This document shows, piece by piece, positions 15,106 to 61,629 of a DNA stretch of 64,000 nucleotides. Within the stretch, counting starts at the first letter, position 1. The number at the start of each line of letters is the position of its first letter. The DNA is from an uncultured Gammaproteobacteria bacterium (GTDB lineage Bacteria; Patescibacteriota; Patescibacteriia; UBA1558; S5-K13), in contig CAYRHT010000005.1 in the NCBI GenBank assembly GCA_964424195.1, positions 8,864-72,863 on the forward strand, in the 5' to 3' direction. Made by a program: the position numbers and the translations under genes. Below the pieces are notes generated by a model. The model made no database searches. It was not told where the DNA came from and was given only the letters and a program-made list of their open reading frames with translations.

Positions 15106-15143
15106 TATTGTATTTGTTTAAATAAAGATTTTTTAAAAATAAA

Positions 15144-15180
15144 AGGCTCTCTGTAGATTATTTACAAAGAGCCTTTTAAA
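15144..15180 (+). terminator. terminator hairpin (aggctct...agagcct + TTTTAAA)
   Basis: 7-bp perfect stem after DKNYY gene stop. Confidence 0.5.
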
Positions 15181-23189: not shown

Positions 23190-23333
23190 ATATAATATTT
23201 AAAATAAAAAATATAAAAAGTTCGTTAAAGTTAATGGACTTTTTATATTTTTCTTAGCTCTTGACTCAAAAGGCATTTGGTAGTAAAATTGTAGCTACCT
23301 TGTATCTAATTTAAATATTAAATTATATAATAT

Positions 23334-30201: not shown

Positions 30202-30276
30202 GCCCCGGTAGTTCAGTGGATAGAACAAGAGCCTTCTAAGCTTTAGACCTAAGTTCGATTCTTAGCCGGGGTACCA
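30202..30276 (+). tRNA. tRNA-Arg (anticodon TCT), CCA encoded
   Basis: cloverleaf folded by hand: acceptor gccccgg/ccggggt, D-arm gttc...gaac, anticodon loop cTTCTaa, T-arm ctaag-ttcgatt-cttag. Confidence 0.9.
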
Positions 30277-30277
30277 T

Positions 30278-30342
30278 GGTGAGTGTAGCTCAATGGTAGA
30301 GCCCTGGTTTGTGGTACCAGTGGTTGTGGGTTCAAATCCCGT
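30278..30342 (+). pseudogene. truncated copy of tRNA-His 5' portion (G-1 through T-arm); 3' acceptor strand missing
   Basis: ~62 nt nearly identical (1 mismatch) to 31026-31088, then diverges (gttaaccaaa instead of atcactcacc), so no acceptor pairing possible. Confidence 0.7.
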
Positions 30343-30402
30343 TAACCAAACACTTTCATATAGTAACGTTAAGACTTTGGAAAAGAATTAAATTATTAAG
30401 TT

Positions 30403-56494: not shown

Positions 56495-57139
56495 ATGAAA
56501 ATTAGTTCTTATGGACATTCCTGTTTTAAAATTAAATGTAAGGATTTAACATTGTTAATAGATCCTTATGACAATACTATTGGTTTGAAAGCTCCTAAAA
56601 CAAAAGCAGATGCTGTTTTAGTTACTCATGATCATCGTGATCATAATAATGTGGGTGCTGCTGGTAAAGAGGCTATTGTTATCAATGGTCCTGGAGAATA
56701 TGAGATCAAGGGAACATTTATTTACGGTAAGGAAGCTAATCATGATAATAAAGATGGAGTAGAAAGAGGTGTAATGACTATGTATTTAATTGAAGATGAA
56801 AAAGTTAGAGTTGCTCATTTAGGAGATTTAGGACAAAAACAGTTAACTAAAGATCAATTAGAATTTTTAGATAATGTCGATGTGCTATTAATTCCAGTTG
56901 GAGGAGAATATACTATCAATAGTAGTGAGGCTATTAATATAATTAATGATATTGAGCCTCGGATTGTTATTCCAATGCATTATAATGTTCCAGGATTAAA
57001 ATTATCTAAAACTTTGGATAAAGTTGATAATTTTGTTAAGGAAATTGGTTTAACGCCGGAAAATTTAGATGAACTTAAAGTTACTCATGATAGTTTACCA
57101 AGTAGTGAGTTAAGATTAGTTACTTTAAAGTCTCAATAA
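56495..57139 (+). CDS. metallo-beta-lactamase-fold hydrolase
   Basis: VLVTHDHRDH (HxHxDH) motif. Confidence 0.7.
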   Translation: MKISSYGHSCFKIKCKDLTLLIDPYDNTIGLKAPKTKADAVLVTHDHRDHNNVGAAGKEAIVINGPGEYEIKGTFIYGKEANHDNKDGVERGVMTMYLIEDEKVRVAHLGDLGQKQLTKDQLEFLDNVDVLLIPVGGEYTINSSEAINIINDIEPRIVIPMHYNVPGLKLSKTLDKVDNFVKEIGLTPENLDELKVTHDSLPSSELRLVTLKSQ

Positions 57140-57140
57140 G

Positions 57141-57821
57141 ATGAATAAGAAATTACAATTAAAATTTTTAGTCTTTGTTTGTATAATAATTGTAGTTATT
57201 GTCTATTTGTATTTTAATCAAAATTTTTCATTTGGATTTAGTGAAGATTTCAAAGGTCTAAGAGATTCTGTTGGATTAGAAATTAAGGAATTGTCTAAAG
57301 CAGACATAGTGGAGAATTTAAAAAATAATTTTAAAGATCTAAAAGATCAAATGAACGAAGACGAAGTAGATCTAGAATCTAAAATAACTGACAATGTTCT
57401 AAGTAAATTATCTCAAAGAGAAAATATTATTTATGAATATGAGCCTTGGGGAATTAAATTTAGTTATGATAGTTTAATGAGTAAAGATATTGATCGAGAC
57501 AATGAAAAGATTTTATTATTTTATGAGGAAGTTCAAACTCTAAAAGCTTCCATAGGGAGATATGTTTTGGAAGAAACTTTTGATGATTGGTTAAATAATA
57601 ATTATAATTTACAAAAATTGGATAAGTTAGAATATAATGGATTGATTTTTTGGATGCAAGATCTTAGTAAGGAAGAGAATAAGTTGAAAGAGTATTATGT
57701 AAATTTAGATGATAATGTATTTATTATCGTTTTAGAATCAAGTCAGGATCAAGAAGAATATTGGAAATCTTTAGAGACTATAGTTAAGTCTTTTAATATA
57801 ATTAAATCTAATAATTTATAA
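57141..57821 (+). CDS. membrane-anchored hypothetical protein
   Basis: N-terminal TM. Confidence 0.4.
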   Translation: MNKKLQLKFLVFVCIIIVVIVYLYFNQNFSFGFSEDFKGLRDSVGLEIKELSKADIVENLKNNFKDLKDQMNEDEVDLESKITDNVLSKLSQRENIIYEYEPWGIKFSYDSLMSKDIDRDNEKILLFYEEVQTLKASIGRYVLEETFDDWLNNNYNLQKLDKLEYNGLIFWMQDLSKEENKLKEYYVNLDDNVFIIVLESSQDQEEYWKSLETIVKSFNIIKSNNL

Positions 57822-57831
57822 TAATAAAATT

Positions 57832-58143
57832 ATGTCTGAAGAAAATAAAATTAATCAACCCGTAGAAGATGTATTTTCAAATGTAAATGAAGCTCCTAAT
57901 TCTGTGACCCCAGTTTCTCCAGAACCAGAAGAGAAGGCTCAAGAAAGCATTGATATTTCAGAAGCCTCTCTAGGACAAACAGCTCCGATAGATGCAAAGC
58001 AGAAGAATGAAGCCATTGGAGAACCTCAGGTTTATCAGGGAGTAAAAGAAGAAGGATTTAAAATGGGTAAAATCCTATTTTACTTAATCTTATCCTTAAT
58101 TGTTGTCCTCGGAGCTTTTGCAATTTGGGCTTTGGTTTTTTAA
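57832..58143 (+). CDS. hypothetical protein with C-terminal TM anchor
   Basis: ILFYLILSLIVVLGAFAIWALVF. Confidence 0.4.
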   Translation: MSEENKINQPVEDVFSNVNEAPNSVTPVSPEPEEKAQESIDISEASLGQTAPIDAKQKNEAIGEPQVYQGVKEEGFKMGKILFYLILSLIVVLGAFAIWALVF

Positions 58144-58146
58144 AAT

Positions 58147-58174
58147 TTGACAGCTCTAGTTCTTAAGCTATAAT
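58147..58174 (+). promoter_or_regulatory. near-consensus sigma-70 promoter TTGACA-16-TATAAT with no downstream ORF
   Basis: read directly. Confidence 0.5.
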
Positions 58175-58180
58175 TAAAGA

Positions 58181-58250
58181 TGATATTTTTCTATTCGTTA
58201 GTGGTCTTATCTAAACCGTAGGACTGGGATAGAAGATATCATCTTTTTCT
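58181..58250 (+). ncRNA. candidate small RNA: long imperfect hairpin (11-bp perfect stem aaagatgatat/atatcatcttt plus second stem segment) followed by U-run
   Basis: directly downstream of the orphan promoter; no coding potential. Confidence 0.3.
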
Positions 58251-58394
58251 TCCCTCGCTTATCTGTCTTAGTAGTTAGTTTAAATTAACTATTAGGATAG
58301 GTATGTGGGGGAAGATTTTTTTCGTATAGATTTCTAATTTCATCTTCTAATTGTTGATGGTTAGATAGTTTTTTAAATATTTTAAACATAATTA

Positions 58395-58937
58395 TTATTT
58401 TTTAATTTTAAATCCAATTTCTTTATTTAAAGGAAGGGGTTTTTCTTGAATTAATTTTTTAATTACTTGAAATATGGTTTTAAATTTTTGATCGTATTCA
58501 GTTTCAATTTTCTCAATTTTCTTTCTTAATTCTTTATGAGTTAGAAGGATTTCTCTTAATTTGGTAAATGTTCTAATAATTTGAATATTTACTTGGATGG
58601 CTTTTTTGTTTTTAAGAACAGAAGATAACATAGCCACTCCTTGCTCTGTAAATACATAAGGTAGGTACCGAGATCCACCTCTCTTTGAGGTCACAATTTG
58701 TGACCTCAAAGAGAGGTCTTGATTTAGAATTCTCGCTTTCCAGTTTTTAAATTCTGCCTCAGTTAATTCAAACATAAAATCCTTTGGAAAACGTCCCATA
58801 TTTCTTTTTACCTGTTGTTTTAAAATTTTGGTTTCCACTCCATAAAGTCTTGCTAAATATTTATCAAACATTACTTTTTTACTCCGAATAAAAAATATTT
58901 TATTAATAATTTTTTCAGAGGTAATTAAATTTTTCAT
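58395..58937 (-). CDS. ORF6N-domain (KilA-N-related) DNA-binding protein
   Basis: IRSKKVMFDKYLARLYGVETKILKQQVKRNMGRFPKDFMFELT...SQIVTSKRGGSRYLPYVFTEQGVAMLSSVL matches the ORF6N conserved block. Confidence 0.75.
   Translation of the reverse strand: MKNLITSEKIINKIFFIRSKKVMFDKYLARLYGVETKILKQQVKRNMGRFPKDFMFELTEAEFKNWKARILNQDLSLRSQIVTSKRGGSRYLPYVFTEQGVAMLSSVLKNKKAIQVNIQIIRTFTKLREILLTHKELRKKIEKIETEYDQKFKTIFQVIKKLIQEKPLPLNKEIGFKIKK
58677..58717. repeat. 41-bp perfect palindrome (20-bp arms, 1-nt centre) inside the ORF6N coding sequence
   Basis: acctctctttgaggtcacaa-t-ttgtgacctcaaagagaggt verified base by base. Confidence 0.9.
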
Positions 58938-58938
58938 A

Positions 58939-61629
58939 TTATTTTTTTAGTAATTGAATAAACTTATTTTTAAATATAAAACCAAGACTAGTGACTAATC
59001 CTGAGCCTAAGAGTAAATTAGTTGTATCAGTTTTTTTCTTACTCTCATCCAAATTAATTATTTCAGTTTCTGTATTTAAATTTGATATTAGCTCTTCTTC
59101 TTTTTCTCCTAGAATTTCTGATTTTATCAAATCATTTTGATTTCGAGGGATAAGTATTAGATCATCGTTATACTGAGTTAAAAAACCATTAATTGTTACA
59201 AAATCATCCTTGGAGAATTCGTCTAGTTTGATCTTAGAACTATTAATTTTGATTTTTAATTCTTCTTCATTGTCTATGATATAGAAACTCTTTTTATTTA
59301 ATTTACTTATTTGACCATTTGTAGATATGAAAGAGTTAATAATATCTTCATTTATTTCTTCTATATAATATTCAGTTAAATCAAGGGGAATCTTAGGTTT
59401 AATAATATTAATATCATTAGGGCTCATTATTTTTATTCGAGAATAGTTTTTTAAGTGATTAATCTTACCTTTAACTTGAATCAAGTCTCCATAGTTTAAT
59501 GAAGGCCACTTATTATTTAGATAAATCGCTATACATTCATTTAAATCACTTAATTCATAGTTTATATCGTAATAACAGATATGAGCTGTATTTTTATATA
59601 TTTCATTTGCTAAAGTAATTACAATACCACTAACTAGAATTTCTTTATTTTTTTCTAAATCTGAAATCTCTTCTATTTCTATAAATCCAGTCTCTAGATT
59701 CAAATCTTCATCTTCTAACTTTTCTTCATTTAATCTGAAGATATTTGTTTCATTCGGAGTTTGATTGTCTGTCCAAAAATACTCATTATTAATTTCATCG
59801 TAAGCATAGGATTGTCCCTCAAAGCTTTTGGAATAAGAGAGGCTATTAATTAAATTATTCTGGCAATCAAAGAGTTCTAATTCTTCATTAGAATTATTAA
59901 GGGTGATTTTTGACTCTTCTTTCTTAATTAGTAAATAATTATTAGCTTTAATAGTCTTTTCCATTTTAAAAGAAGAGCTAGCATCATTGATAGTCCAATT
60001 ATTTAAATTAATGTCTTGATTATTTGGGTTATATAATTCTATCCATTCCAGATCATCAGATCCTTCAGGATTAGGTAAAACTTCGTTGATGATGATATTT
60101 TTGTTAGTTGATGAACAAAGTCCATCTGTCTCTTCTGATGATTCTTCTGAACCTTCTGTGGAATTTATGATGTAGAGATAAATAATTGTTTCATCTTCTA
60201 ATTCAGATTCATTAATGACTTTTAATTTAATTTCTTTTAATCCTACAGTAGTAAAAGTAATTTTGAATTCCTCTTCATCATCTTGAAAGGAATTATTAAG
60301 GTACCATTTGTATTCTAAATCTTGATTATTAGGATCTTCTGAATTATTAGCGCTTAGAATAATTTCTTGATTAGTATTTAATTCATTACTAATTAGATTA
60401 ATGATGGCAACTGGAGGAACAAGAGGTTCTTTTTCATTTTCATAACCTTTAGTTAAAAGAGAGGTTTGTTCCCATTGATTATTAAATCTAGCCCAAGAAT
60501 AGTTTTCTTTAGAAGTAGTATAATTTACTTCATCTATTTTCTCACTAAGATTATTAAATAGTGAGATTGTCTCTTCAGAATTGTTTAAAGATATTCCAGA
60601 AATAGATCTTTCCAAGACAAGGTAATTATTAATAGTATCGTCTGAAAAAGTATATCTATTTCCAGAAGCATCTTCTAGATAACAATCTTTTAAATTAACA
60701 TTGTCATTATTCTCATTTTTTAATTCAATCCATTCAGCATCATCACTTCCAGTTGGATTTGGCAATAATTCATTAATGATAATATTATTTATTGGTATAG
60801 GAAGAGGATCATTTATTTCCTCCTCCTCTATAGTTACTATTAAAGAATCAGTACTAGAAGTCTTTCCGTCACTGACTGTTAGAAAAATAGTATAAGTTCC
60901 TATTTGGGGAAATTGATAACTAGCTATTTCTAAGCTAGAAGTAGCTAATTCATTAAAATTCCATAGGAAACTTATTTCATCACCGTTTGGGTCATAGGAT
61001 GCACTAGCATCAAATAATATTTCTTCATTCGTGTAAGTATTTATATCCTCACCAGCTATAGCGACAGGAGCTTGGTTTAGGGGAGGAGTACTAGATTCAT
61101 TTCCTGGTGTTCCGTTGATGATATAGCTCTCTTGCCAATTATTTTCAAGGCTATAAATGTTTATTTTTTCTAAAGTTTTTCCATTACCATTAGCACCTAA
61201 ATTAGAATCATAAGTAAATTCATTTATTAATTGATCATTATTCAATAATTGAAGAGTGTCAGTAGAATTATTTAAGCTCAGGGAAGATTCAAATATTGTT
61301 CCATCAAAGTTTTGATAATTATTTAAAAAAGTTTGAACATCAGCCGTGATGATAAAGAAAGTAGTATCGGCTATTTGATTATCTCCTTGGTAAAGATTTA
61401 GTAAGTGATTAGATCCATCATTAAATCTCCAATTAGAATTAATCTCTATTGTGGAAGTTGATAAATTAAATACTTCTACCCATTCTTGATTAGTATCTGT
61501 TCCTTCGGGGTTATACATTATTTCAGTAAAGATTAAATCTTCAGCCTGAGCTGTGTTAATGAATATTAGAACTACAAAAAATATAATAGATATTATAGTA
61601 ATGTAGAAATTTTGATATTTTAAATACAT
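58939..61629 (-). CDS. large cell-surface protein with three lamin-tail-domain (LTD) repeats, a PKD-like segment and C-terminal TM anchor
   Basis: N-terminal TM/signal; LTD signatures IFTEIMYNPEGTDTNQEWVEVFN, IIINELLPNPTGSDDAEWIELKN, IIINEVLPNPEGSDDLEWIELYN. Confidence 0.7.
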   Translation of the reverse strand: MYLKYQNFYITIISIIFFVVLIFINTAQAEDLIFTEIMYNPEGTDTNQEWVEVFNLSTSTIEINSNWRFNDGSNHLLNLYQGDNQIADTTFFIITADVQTFLNNYQNFDGTIFESSLSLNNSTDTLQLLNNDQLINEFTYDSNLGANGNGKTLEKINIYSLENNWQESYIINGTPGNESSTPPLNQAPVAIAGEDINTYTNEEILFDASASYDPNGDEISFLWNFNELATSSLEIASYQFPQIGTYTIFLTVSDGKTSSTDSLIVTIEEEEINDPLPIPINNIIINELLPNPTGSDDAEWIELKNENNDNVNLKDCYLEDASGNRYTFSDDTINNYLVLERSISGISLNNSEETISLFNNLSEKIDEVNYTTSKENYSWARFNNQWEQTSLLTKGYENEKEPLVPPVAIINLISNELNTNQEIILSANNSEDPNNQDLEYKWYLNNSFQDDEEEFKITFTTVGLKEIKLKVINESELEDETIIYLYIINSTEGSEESSEETDGLCSSTNKNIIINEVLPNPEGSDDLEWIELYNPNNQDINLNNWTINDASSSFKMEKTIKANNYLLIKKEESKITLNNSNEELELFDCQNNLINSLSYSKSFEGQSYAYDEINNEYFWTDNQTPNETNIFRLNEEKLEDEDLNLETGFIEIEEISDLEKNKEILVSGIVITLANEIYKNTAHICYYDINYELSDLNECIAIYLNNKWPSLNYGDLIQVKGKINHLKNYSRIKIMSPNDINIIKPKIPLDLTEYYIEEINEDIINSFISTNGQISKLNKKSFYIIDNEEELKIKINSSKIKLDEFSKDDFVTINGFLTQYNDDLILIPRNQNDLIKSEILGEKEEELISNLNTETEIINLDESKKKTDTTNLLLGSGLVTSLGFIFKNKFIQLLKK

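Follow-up and report, generated by a model that had tools for sequence, protein, structure and literature searches.

The window, by which we mean the whole 64,000-nucleotide stretch of contig CAYRHT010000005.1 that was analyzed, carries on its minus strand a gene for an ORF6N-domain protein, and a perfect palindrome of 41 bp lies inside this gene. The gene, the palindrome and the features that overlap or adjoin them are listed here in window coordinates:

58395..58937, minus strand: ORF6N-domain gene, 180 amino acids (aa), with an N-terminal ORF6N domain followed by long C-terminal helices
58677..58717, no strand: perfect 41-bp palindrome, centre at 58697
58684..58710: dyad core conserved in the family (positions 2-13 of both arms, counted from the centre), TTTGAGGTCACAA-n-TTGTGACCTCAAA
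58719..58742, minus strand: codons W66-Q73 (WKARILNQ), a feature weakly indicated by the protein alignment and by in-gene arrays in homologues
58939..61629, minus strand: LTD/PKD-domain gene, 896 aa, upstream of the ORF6N gene and co-oriented with it, ending 1 nt before the ORF6N start

An inverted-repeat search returned two arms of 20 nt each (58677-58696 and 58698-58717), 100% complementary and separated by 1 nt, just as a reading made from the sequence alone had described them. On the coding (minus) strand the palindrome is ACCTCTCTTTGAGGTCACAA-A-TTGTGACCTCAAAGAGAGGT, which encodes (D)LSLRSQ-I-VTSKRG. It falls wholly within the ORF6N open reading frame (ORF), where the encoded residues are 74-87, DLSLRSQIVTSKRG. 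With up to 3 mismatches allowed, the half-site matched nothing else in the window, and 100 shuffles gave no match either. For this peptide and the codon usage of the window, the exact palindrome codons have a probability of about 1e-10. Among 200,000 synonymous resamples, the arms at this centre reached at most 10 nt, against the 20 observed. The window has a G+C content of about 29%, and the palindrome is made of rare G+C-rich codons (CTC, GTG, ACC, AGG and TTG make up 2.5%, 7.6%, 7.8%, 8.3% and 12% of their synonymous sets, respectively). An independent JGI metagenome contig (L001) has the identical 41-mer; the palindrome is therefore not an assembly artefact. Chance, protein constraint and artefact are excluded as its origin. 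The sequence-only reading had judged chance essentially impossible and a foldback artefact unlikely, and had proposed that the palindrome constrains the codons; all of these judgments stand.

Three further lineages have an orthologue with 79-82% protein identity to the ORF6N protein of the window and with the same neighbors. The shared gene order (window 56495-61629; loci L001-L011) comprises SSB, the large LTD/PKD protein, ORF6N, small ORFs, and a metallo-beta-lactamase-fold protein; a T2SSE-type ATPase lies farther along in the four lineages. In the DNA alignment of the orthologues, silent-site differences occur throughout the gene, and the core TCTTTGAGGTCACAA-[A/T]-TTGTGACCTCAAA is invariant; the sole change in the core is at the central base (Ile to Phe). 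The perfect arms measure 13, 16, 19, and 20 nt in the four lineages, so the window has the longest version of a shared palindrome. In this lineage, ORF6N is a stable chromosomal gene and not an obvious mobile-element cargo.

Relatives of the gene were collected from 240 further loci: 80 in species-representative genomes of very diverse phyla, 80 in viral contigs, and 80 in metagenome contigs. The register was anchored by the protein, in that each protein was aligned to the family profile and the DNA was read around the codon following the conserved Gln; this was meant to avoid choosing the register by symmetry. In the 169 unique sequences, which come from many phyla, 1903 of 2028 cells (94%) at positions 2-13, counted from the centre, were Watson-Crick paired, positions 14-15 were paired in about half of the sequences, and positions from 16 outward were at background. 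The element is a perfect dyad with arms of 12-13 bp and an A/T-rich centre of 1-3 nt, and its consensus is TTGAGGTCACAA-n-TTGTGACCTCAA. The core at 58684..58710 is the portion that is kept and that co-varies across phyla, and the outer 7 bp of each arm in the window are a lineage-specific extension. A covariance model made from in-gene copies matched 58681-58713 at 48 bits, its sole match in the 64 kb; the next-best score was 16.5 bits (E = 0.25). Judged from these comparisons, the 41-bp palindrome is a local, lengthened version of a DNA element that nearly all genes of this ORF6N-plus-coiled-coil family have at an equivalent nucleotide position. The suggested alignment of homologous genes thus showed a palindrome conserved across the family and not a strain-specific accident.

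Pairing within the element goes together with covariation. In a gapless alignment (A3) of 110 unique 33-mers, 95.6% of the cells were paired, compared to 26-46% when the partner was slid by 1-3 columns; double-sided changes occurred in 10 of 12 pairs, and there were 192 compensated cells versus 46 +- 5 in shuffles, although A3 was pre-selected for at least 10 of 12 pairs and the counts from the 169 sequences are less biased. When the peptide was held fixed and the codons were redrawn from the usage of each locus, 4.6 of the 12 positions were paired, in contrast to 10.8 observed; amino-acid conservation therefore does not explain the palindrome. The excess over synonymous resampling holds across loci with G+C contents from 20% to 75%, and 88% of the sequences exceed all 300 of their own resamples. 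The codons that face each other across the centre were distributed as follows (left arm opposite right arm, encoded residues where they were tabulated, number of sequences):

TCA opposite GTG, Ser and Val, 94
TCG opposite GCG, Ser and Ala, 19
TTC opposite GGA, Phe and Gly, 12
TGC opposite GGC, Cys and Gly, 9
TTG opposite GCA, Leu and Ala, 1
TTT opposite GAA, Phe and Glu, 1
AGG opposite ACC, Arg and Thr, 92
AGA opposite ATC, Arg and Ile, 12
AAG opposite ACT, Lys and Thr, 6
TTG opposite TCA, Leu and Ser, 118
TTA opposite TTA, Leu and Leu, 15

Many of the compensatory double changes alter the amino acids encoded by both arms (S/V, S/A, C/G, F/G). The outer arms fall into classes such as AACTTG...CAAGTT(GG), encoding NL...SSW; TCTTTG...CAAAGA, encoding SL...SKR; and AATTGG...CCAATT, encoding NW...SN. 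These sequence comparisons show selection on nucleotide complementarity rather than on the peptide.

The same core is also read in a second frame. A divergent subfamily, in other respects clearly the same protein and with a match to Pfam ORF6N, carries it (ATCACAAnTTGTGAT) in frame +1 as ..VITICDNL..; between the conserved DFMF and FTEQG blocks, these proteins have ..E-V-I-T-I-C-D-N-L.. where others have ..N-L-R-S-Q-I-V-T-S... Their DNA is AGGTTATCACAA-T-TTGTGATAACCT, and its centre falls on a second codon position, where the others have it on a first. The distance from the centre to the Asp codon of DFMF is 50 nt in this subfamily and 52 nt in the others, a shift of only 2 nt. At the same place, the more distant members encoded by two tiny Segatella plasmids show GTGGTCGAAA-A-TTTCGACCAC and GAGGTTATCAAA-AAA-TTTGATAACCTC; a Pfam ORF6N match is retained even by distant frame-shifted members, such as L253 (E = 7.3e-28).

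Some ORF6N genes contain two or three in-frame copies of the palindrome, 36-54 nt apart, and these tandem copies account for the duplicated "KSQIVTS...LRSQIVTS" peptide of many homologues. Copies inside one gene vary at arm positions 4-5 and 7-8, and the symmetry within every copy is nevertheless preserved. In the window, the WKARILNQ codons occupy the site at which many homologues hold the second, upstream in-frame copy (WKSQIVTS...). The site is degenerate here; it includes an 8-bp palindrome, AGAATTCT, at 58726-58733, and orthologue P0002 has AAAATTTT at the equivalent position. From its place and sequence, this mini-palindrome may be a decayed second copy of the large one.

The peptide LRSQIVTS thus looks largely like a passenger, in what the structural model suggests is a loop tolerant of other sequences. 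The sequence-only reading had placed the palindrome in the region that encodes the conserved DLSLRSQIVTSKRGG block. The palindrome does lie there; the direction of the constraint is probably the opposite of the one implied, with the block conserved because of the DNA and not vice versa.

Copies were also found outside coding sequence. We scanned 224 non-identical loci (692 kb) for a CA...TG centre with at least 10 of 12 pairs and obtained 286 copies, versus 2 in shuffled sequence. The canonical in-gene place accounted for 234 of the 286. A further 36 were located within 150 nt upstream of the estimated ORF6N start, mostly at -16 to -95, and 7 were just 3' of the stop codon. An upstream copy was present at 35 of the 224 loci (about 15%), mostly in intergenic sequence; the window locus, where the gene abuts the upstream gene, has none. 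At about 15 loci inspected in detail, the upstream copies were intergenic, were interrupted by stops in every frame, lacked similarity to the gene in their flanks, and kept the full consensus; they were paired in L230, L063, and L070, with a spacing of 37 nt in L230 and 44 nt in L063. Over 100 kb of a conjugative plasmid of Legionella pneumophila there are only two matches to the covariance model, both at its ORF6N gene: one inside the gene, and one, alike in its core, 2 nt past the stop codon and followed by AGTTACTAATTAC. Regulon-like copies away from ORF6N were absent from both the 64-kb window and the 100 kb of the Legionella plasmid. The extra copies are shown by these scans to be strictly associated with ORF6N genes. 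Collectively, the sequences show a nucleotide-level dyad at a fixed position in the gene, maintained family-wide in spite of codon usage, in many phyla, in both reading frames, and in copies that are not coding; the sequence-only reading had noticed neither its spread through the family nor the second frame nor the extra copies.

Upstream and in-gene copies from the same locus differed on average by 7.6 of 27 nt, compared to 9.3 for random pairs (permutation p = 0.0004). The similarity is bimodal: at about ten loci the two are nearly identical, and at others they are unrelated at arm positions 4-5 and 7-8. In L034, the upstream copy is identical to the in-gene copy over 29 nt, asymmetry included.

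Several loci depart from the common arrangement. Non-coding arrays of two or three different palindromes, 30-44 nt apart, occur beside ORF6N in L193 (1040-1104), L230 (1386-1423), L063 (1090-1134), and L070 (about 1340-1426). In L070 (Oligoflexia) and L079 (Gemmataceae), the in-gene palindrome is lost or degenerate, and one or two perfect copies lie 50-55 nt upstream of the start. The possibility that an upstream copy stands in for a lost in-gene copy was not significant across loci (4 of 20 versus 31 of 204). Two or three adjacent ORF6N paralogues with differing palindrome variants are found in L044, L058, L080, L183, L173, and other loci, and proteins P0005 and P0010 consist of two fused ORF6N domains.

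Relatives are also carried by mobile elements. They occur on conjugative elements of Bacteroides, adjoining integrases and ArdA, and on Legionella plasmids. In two Segatella copri plasmids (L252, NZ_CP152354.1, 2955 bp; L253, NZ_CP152486.1, 4140 bp), the only annotated genes are a replication initiator and ORF6N; the ORF6N genes have the variant palindrome in the alternative reading frame, and iteron-like direct repeats are found elsewhere on the plasmids. No second copy of the palindrome was found on these 3-4-kb plasmids.

We used synonymous changes to determine whether the arms pair as DNA or as RNA. The arms pair a third codon position with a non-third position, and the synonymous transitions that would create a wobble were counted against the expectation from codon usage. 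Changes creating a G.U pair in the mRNA were absent in all three classes:

ACC to ACT opposite AGG, 0 of 92, expected 37
TCA to TCG opposite GTG, 0 of 94, expected 42
TCA to TCG opposite TTG, 0 of 118, expected 53

For the sense strand, this amounts to 0 of 304 versus 132 expected. Changes creating G.U on the antisense strand, which are A.C on the sense strand, were seen in 14 of 431 versus 196 expected, and 12 of the 14 were AGA opposite ACC. All mismatches in the 169 sequences comprise 21 G.T, 59 A.C, and 45 others; in the non-coding copies, G.T and A.C mismatches were about equal by eye. Since neither strand behaves as a folded RNA, strict DNA complementarity is the constraint that fits, and from these substitution patterns the dyad looks like a constraint on DNA, not RNA. 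The earlier suggestion that the palindrome acts on mRNA structure is not supported, given this absence of G.U tolerance on either strand.

In a search of Rfam 15, no family was found at the palindrome; the best regional match, at a permissive E-value, was 23.7 bits where 39 are needed (Yfr13), the remaining ones fell far short of their thresholds, and nothing at the palindrome appeared when the whole window was searched at gathering scores. An intrinsic (Rho-independent) terminator was rejected, as the stem lacks a T run behind it on both strands of the window. A structured cis-regulatory RNA hairpin is not supported either, given strong covariation without sense G.U wobble.

The 180-aa protein matches Pfam ORF6N (PF10543) over residues 12-107 with E = 6.9e-32 and 110 bits (cut-off 27.8); Pfam also gives a weak Rha match. 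The PADLOC model PDLC04856 of PDC-S05, a candidate single-gene anti-phage system, matches residues 1-172 of the 180 with E = 1.9e-55, and PHROG "anti-repressor" families match too. The exact protein is indexed in about 50 collection blocks (NCBI, JGI, ENA, and Logan assemblies). More than 8000 relatives were found at E below 1e-10, and the relatives of the window protein are annotated as Patescibacteria. According to a preprint (bioRxiv 10.1101/2024.09.26.614923), T7 and T5 plated about 1000-fold less well on E. coli with one PDC-S05 representative, described as a RhuM-domain protein; this type may differ from the subtype in the window. The PDC-S05 and Bro/KilA-N "anti-repressor" labels, both matched by the window protein, concern the protein and not the palindrome.

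A PDB sequence search found no solved structure for the protein. In the AlphaFold model, calculated from a shallow input alignment of 36 sequences, the mean pLDDT is 69; residues 72-84 are below 50, and the flanking blocks are at 80-86. A Foldseek search with this model returned nothing significant (best E = 1.5); the weak, non-significant structural neighbors were MerR and RacA, which are coiled-coil binders of palindromes.

The family is strongly mosaic. The maximum chi-square breakpoints of 166 strongly mosaic pairs are concentrated at residues ~120-135 (window ~58530-58580), where the ORF6N domain gives way to the C-terminal helices; only 1 of the 166 pairs has its breakpoint at residues 85-89, and a few homologue pairs switch similarity near the palindrome. 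The mosaic structure fits the domain swapping that characterizes the Bro network, of which the ORF6N protein is a member (PMC10111431); domain swapping is typical of the Bro/KilA-N network and is also shown by the ORF6N family. A recombination hot-spot or site-specific recombination site, one of the options raised by the sequence-only reading, was rejected as the main role: the breakpoints lie away from the palindrome, and the integrases present in some mobile elements are not adjacent in the window or its orthologues.

Sites of several known kinds resemble the element. The origin iterons of phage lambda lie inside the gene of the initiator O, and the phiX174 origin lies inside gene A. As is proposed for ORF6N, the dyad-symmetric sites are within the coding sequence of their own binder, in one to several tandem copies, in a flexible linker where the peptide matters little. 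These are replication origins with demonstrated binding; in contrast, the ORF6N gene sits in a chromosomal operon, mostly has a single copy, and its binding is putative. The ORF6N element also differs from these origins in being conserved across a huge family and many phyla, with covariation of the arms. Other sites in coding regions are parS in spo0J/parB, lac O2 in lacZ, gal OI in galE, and the PurR roadblock in purB, which act by roadblock, looping, or nucleation. They too are palindromic regulator or partition sites within a gene, sometimes the binder's own; however, they have a fixed sequence read base by base, whereas the ORF6N arm positions vary freely if both change.

Short DNA hairpins recognized by their structure and a few bases include REP/BIME with RAYT transposases, the ends of IS200/IS605, and integron attC. 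They sometimes flank the gene of the protein that handles them, as the ORF6N dyad would if the ORF6N protein recognized it. They differ from the dyad in forming dispersed copies or arrays and in depending on HUH or tyrosine recombinases, whereas the 64-kb window has a single dyad and no enzyme of this kind in its vicinity; attC and the insertion sequence (IS) ends are moreover imperfect hairpins with extrahelical bases, unlike the perfect ORF6N dyad. A dispersed palindromic repeat of the REP/BIME kind was rejected on the copy number, one in the 64-kb window and two in 100 kb of the Legionella plasmid, both at ORF6N. Cruciform-dependent origins such as pT181 IR-II and the hairpin promoters of phage N4 are perfect inverted repeats that work only once extruded from supercoiled DNA and are very sensitive to mismatches. 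Their short A/T-rich centres resemble that of the ORF6N dyad. IR-II is bound by Rep and the N4 promoters by the virion RNA polymerase; no such partner or function is evident for the ORF6N dyad. Quasi-palindrome template-switch mutagenesis (the Ripley model), in which one arm is copied onto the other, offers a mechanism for the perfect symmetry and for the simultaneous double changes. It is a mutational process and not a function, and it leaves the conservation of the sequence, its position, and its association with the gene unexplained.

The reading we favor, at a probability of roughly 45%, is that the element acts in DNA as the cognate cis-acting site of the ORF6N protein, possibly by forming a cruciform, which would make this a gene with its own operator; the binding is putative. 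The ORF6N domain, a predicted DNA-binding domain, would recognize the dyad inside its own gene, and the long helical tail would serve for oligomerization; the dyad could be used in duplex form, as a symmetric site, or after extrusion into a cruciform or hairpin. The product would then hold its own gene down, through a roadblock or through looping to the optional upstream copies, wherever the gene lands. In the window, where the 1-nt gap to the LTD/PKD gene leaves ORF6N without an intergenic promoter region, the in-gene copy is the only one. Such a built-in site would be of use to a regulator or defence gene that moves horizontally and may be toxic. Template switching between the arms is a probable contributor to their identity. 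In support of an operator, a dyad-symmetric site was found in or next to the gene of a predicted DNA-binding protein nearly throughout the family; the confinement of the copies to ORF6N loci, the likeness of upstream and in-gene copies, and the place of the protein in the Bro/KilA-N network also speak for the favored reading. The sequence-only reading had listed a protein-binding or cruciform site with self-recognition among its options; this is the one that the evidence favors, with the binding itself still putative. We consider it possible, though slightly less probable than the cis-site as such, that LRSQIVTS, the best-conserved stretch of the family, is not a protein motif at all but the translation of a DNA palindrome recognized by the protein itself, probably in a cruciform- or hairpin-like form, and that gene and site make up a putative inseparable, self-recognizing, portable module.

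Several observations weigh against the favored reading. The variation at arm positions 4-5 and 7-8 between copies of the same gene or locus is difficult for it; because copies vary yet stay symmetric, a plain B-DNA operator is insufficient and intrastrand pairing fits better. From the sequence data, a cruciform-forming site fits better than a plain operator, given the symmetry at variable positions, the A/T-rich centre, and the intolerance of mismatches. An upstream copy exists in only about 15% of the loci. Scans for Sigma-70 promoters around the upstream copies were uninformative, the distances between upstream and in-gene copies showed no helical phasing of the kind DNA looping would call for, and the copies just past the stop codon are odd for an operator. 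With 36 sequences in the alignment, the low confidence of the loop in the model may partly reflect indels. Homogenization by template switching, if it occurs, would make wobble states short-lived at any functional level and so weaken the wobble test; despite this caveat, the prediction for a sense RNA, G.T commoner than A.C, is reversed in the data.

Of the alternatives, which we rank in the order in which they follow, the first is a structural DNA element, a single-stranded hairpin or a cruciform, that serves another process (priming or replication initiation, entry of single-stranded DNA in transfer, or a structure-specific nuclease or recombinase), with ORF6N as a mere carrier. All arm positions are symmetric even where copies in the same gene differ, the A/T-rich centre is conserved, and mismatches are not tolerated, as extrusion of a cruciform would need; the gene's presence on conjugative elements beside ArdA and integrases and on 3-4-kb plasmids with only Rep and ORF6N points the same way. 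We nevertheless think it unlikely. Neither the 64 kb of chromosome nor the 100 kb of plasmid has any copy other than those in or beside ORF6N genes; chromosomal orthologues that are stably inherited and keep their synteny carry the element too; HUH, relaxase, or recombinase genes are not regular neighbors; and the small plasmids show iteron-type repeats of a separate kind near rep but lack another palindrome. An RNA hairpin of the ORF6N transcript, whether in the 5' untranslated region (UTR), the coding sequence, or the 3' UTR, could act in cis on stability or translation and might be bound by ORF6N or cut by a double-strand-specific RNase. Every copy lies where the gene's own transcript would run (shortly upstream, in the gene, or just past the stop), and the predicted fold is very stable (-42.5 kcal/mol, z = -5.85 for the palindrome segment). 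The complete lack of G.U pairs at synonymous sites, the A.C class being if anything the commoner, the lack of an Rfam match, and a stem without a U run make this quite improbable.

Less probable again is a functionless, self-perpetuating palindrome, perhaps with some incidental recombination, in which template switching from arm to arm (quasi-palindrome correction) maintains perfection and produces apparent compensation in one step. The loop accepts other peptides, frames, and extra copies; the double amino-acid changes are easily made by copying one arm onto the other; and both the 29-nt identity in L034, asymmetry included, and the few homologue pairs that switch near the palindrome agree with it. 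However, such a process leaves unexplained the conservation of the sequence across phyla and G+C contents, non-coding copies with the TTGAGGTCACAA consensus included, as well as the fixed position in thousands of genes and the extra copies adjacent to ORF6N, and the dominant breakpoint is at residues ~120-135 rather than at the palindrome. We give next to no credence to a by-product of protein constraint or a foldback from assembly or amplification. LRSQIVTS is indeed conserved in the Pfam domain and could be encoded as a palindrome; the fixed-peptide resampling, the limit of 10 nt in the window trials, and the persistence of the palindrome in another frame and in non-coding copies all oppose the former, and the same sequence in an independent assembly and the core conserved in orthologues oppose the latter.

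The window contains other structured elements. Matches above the Rfam gathering scores at 41663-41882, 35446-35560, and 30202-31087 (all plus strand) correspond to a T-box leader (98 bits), LOOT RNA (70 bits), and three tRNAs. At 34073-34094 (ATAACAAAATCATTGTTTCAAA) and 34125-34146 (TTTGAAACAATGATTTTGTTAT), the two perfect 22-nt arms of an inverted repeat flank a spacer of 30 nt; this repeat overlaps the end of a 59-aa ORF and lies just upstream of a gene that starts at 34164, and its arms are longer than those of the 41-bp palindrome. Near-palindromes with centres of 1-2 nt at 15140-15178 (19-nt arms, 89% complementary) and 23207-23252 (22-nt arms, 91%) have no sequence relation to the ORF6N element.

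We found no description of the ORF6N palindrome in Rfam or in the searchable literature, where mentions of ORF6N are incidental. A cis-site inside its own gene is of a known kind; the scale, the covariation that rewrites amino acids, the use of two frames, and the likely structural requirement are not known from earlier cases. The conservation that defines the widespread ORF6N domain appears to be largely imposed at the DNA level, which changes how its "motif" is read and serves as a warning that covariation between residues may not mean contacts in the protein. A defined site of 27 bp offers a testable handle on a family with thousands of members in many phyla, found on plasmids, phages, and conjugative elements as well as in streamlined Patescibacteria-like genomes; as PDC-S05, the family figures among the candidate defence systems. 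If the reading holds, a cis-element would override the evolution of a protein sequence across thousands of genes, and the amino-acid covariation (S/V, C/G, F/G, R-T/K-T) would have been written by Watson-Crick pairing. If the protein does bind its own coding sequence, the family would be one of genes with their own operator, regulated independently of the insertion site, and a link to the control of an anti-phage gene would be possible.

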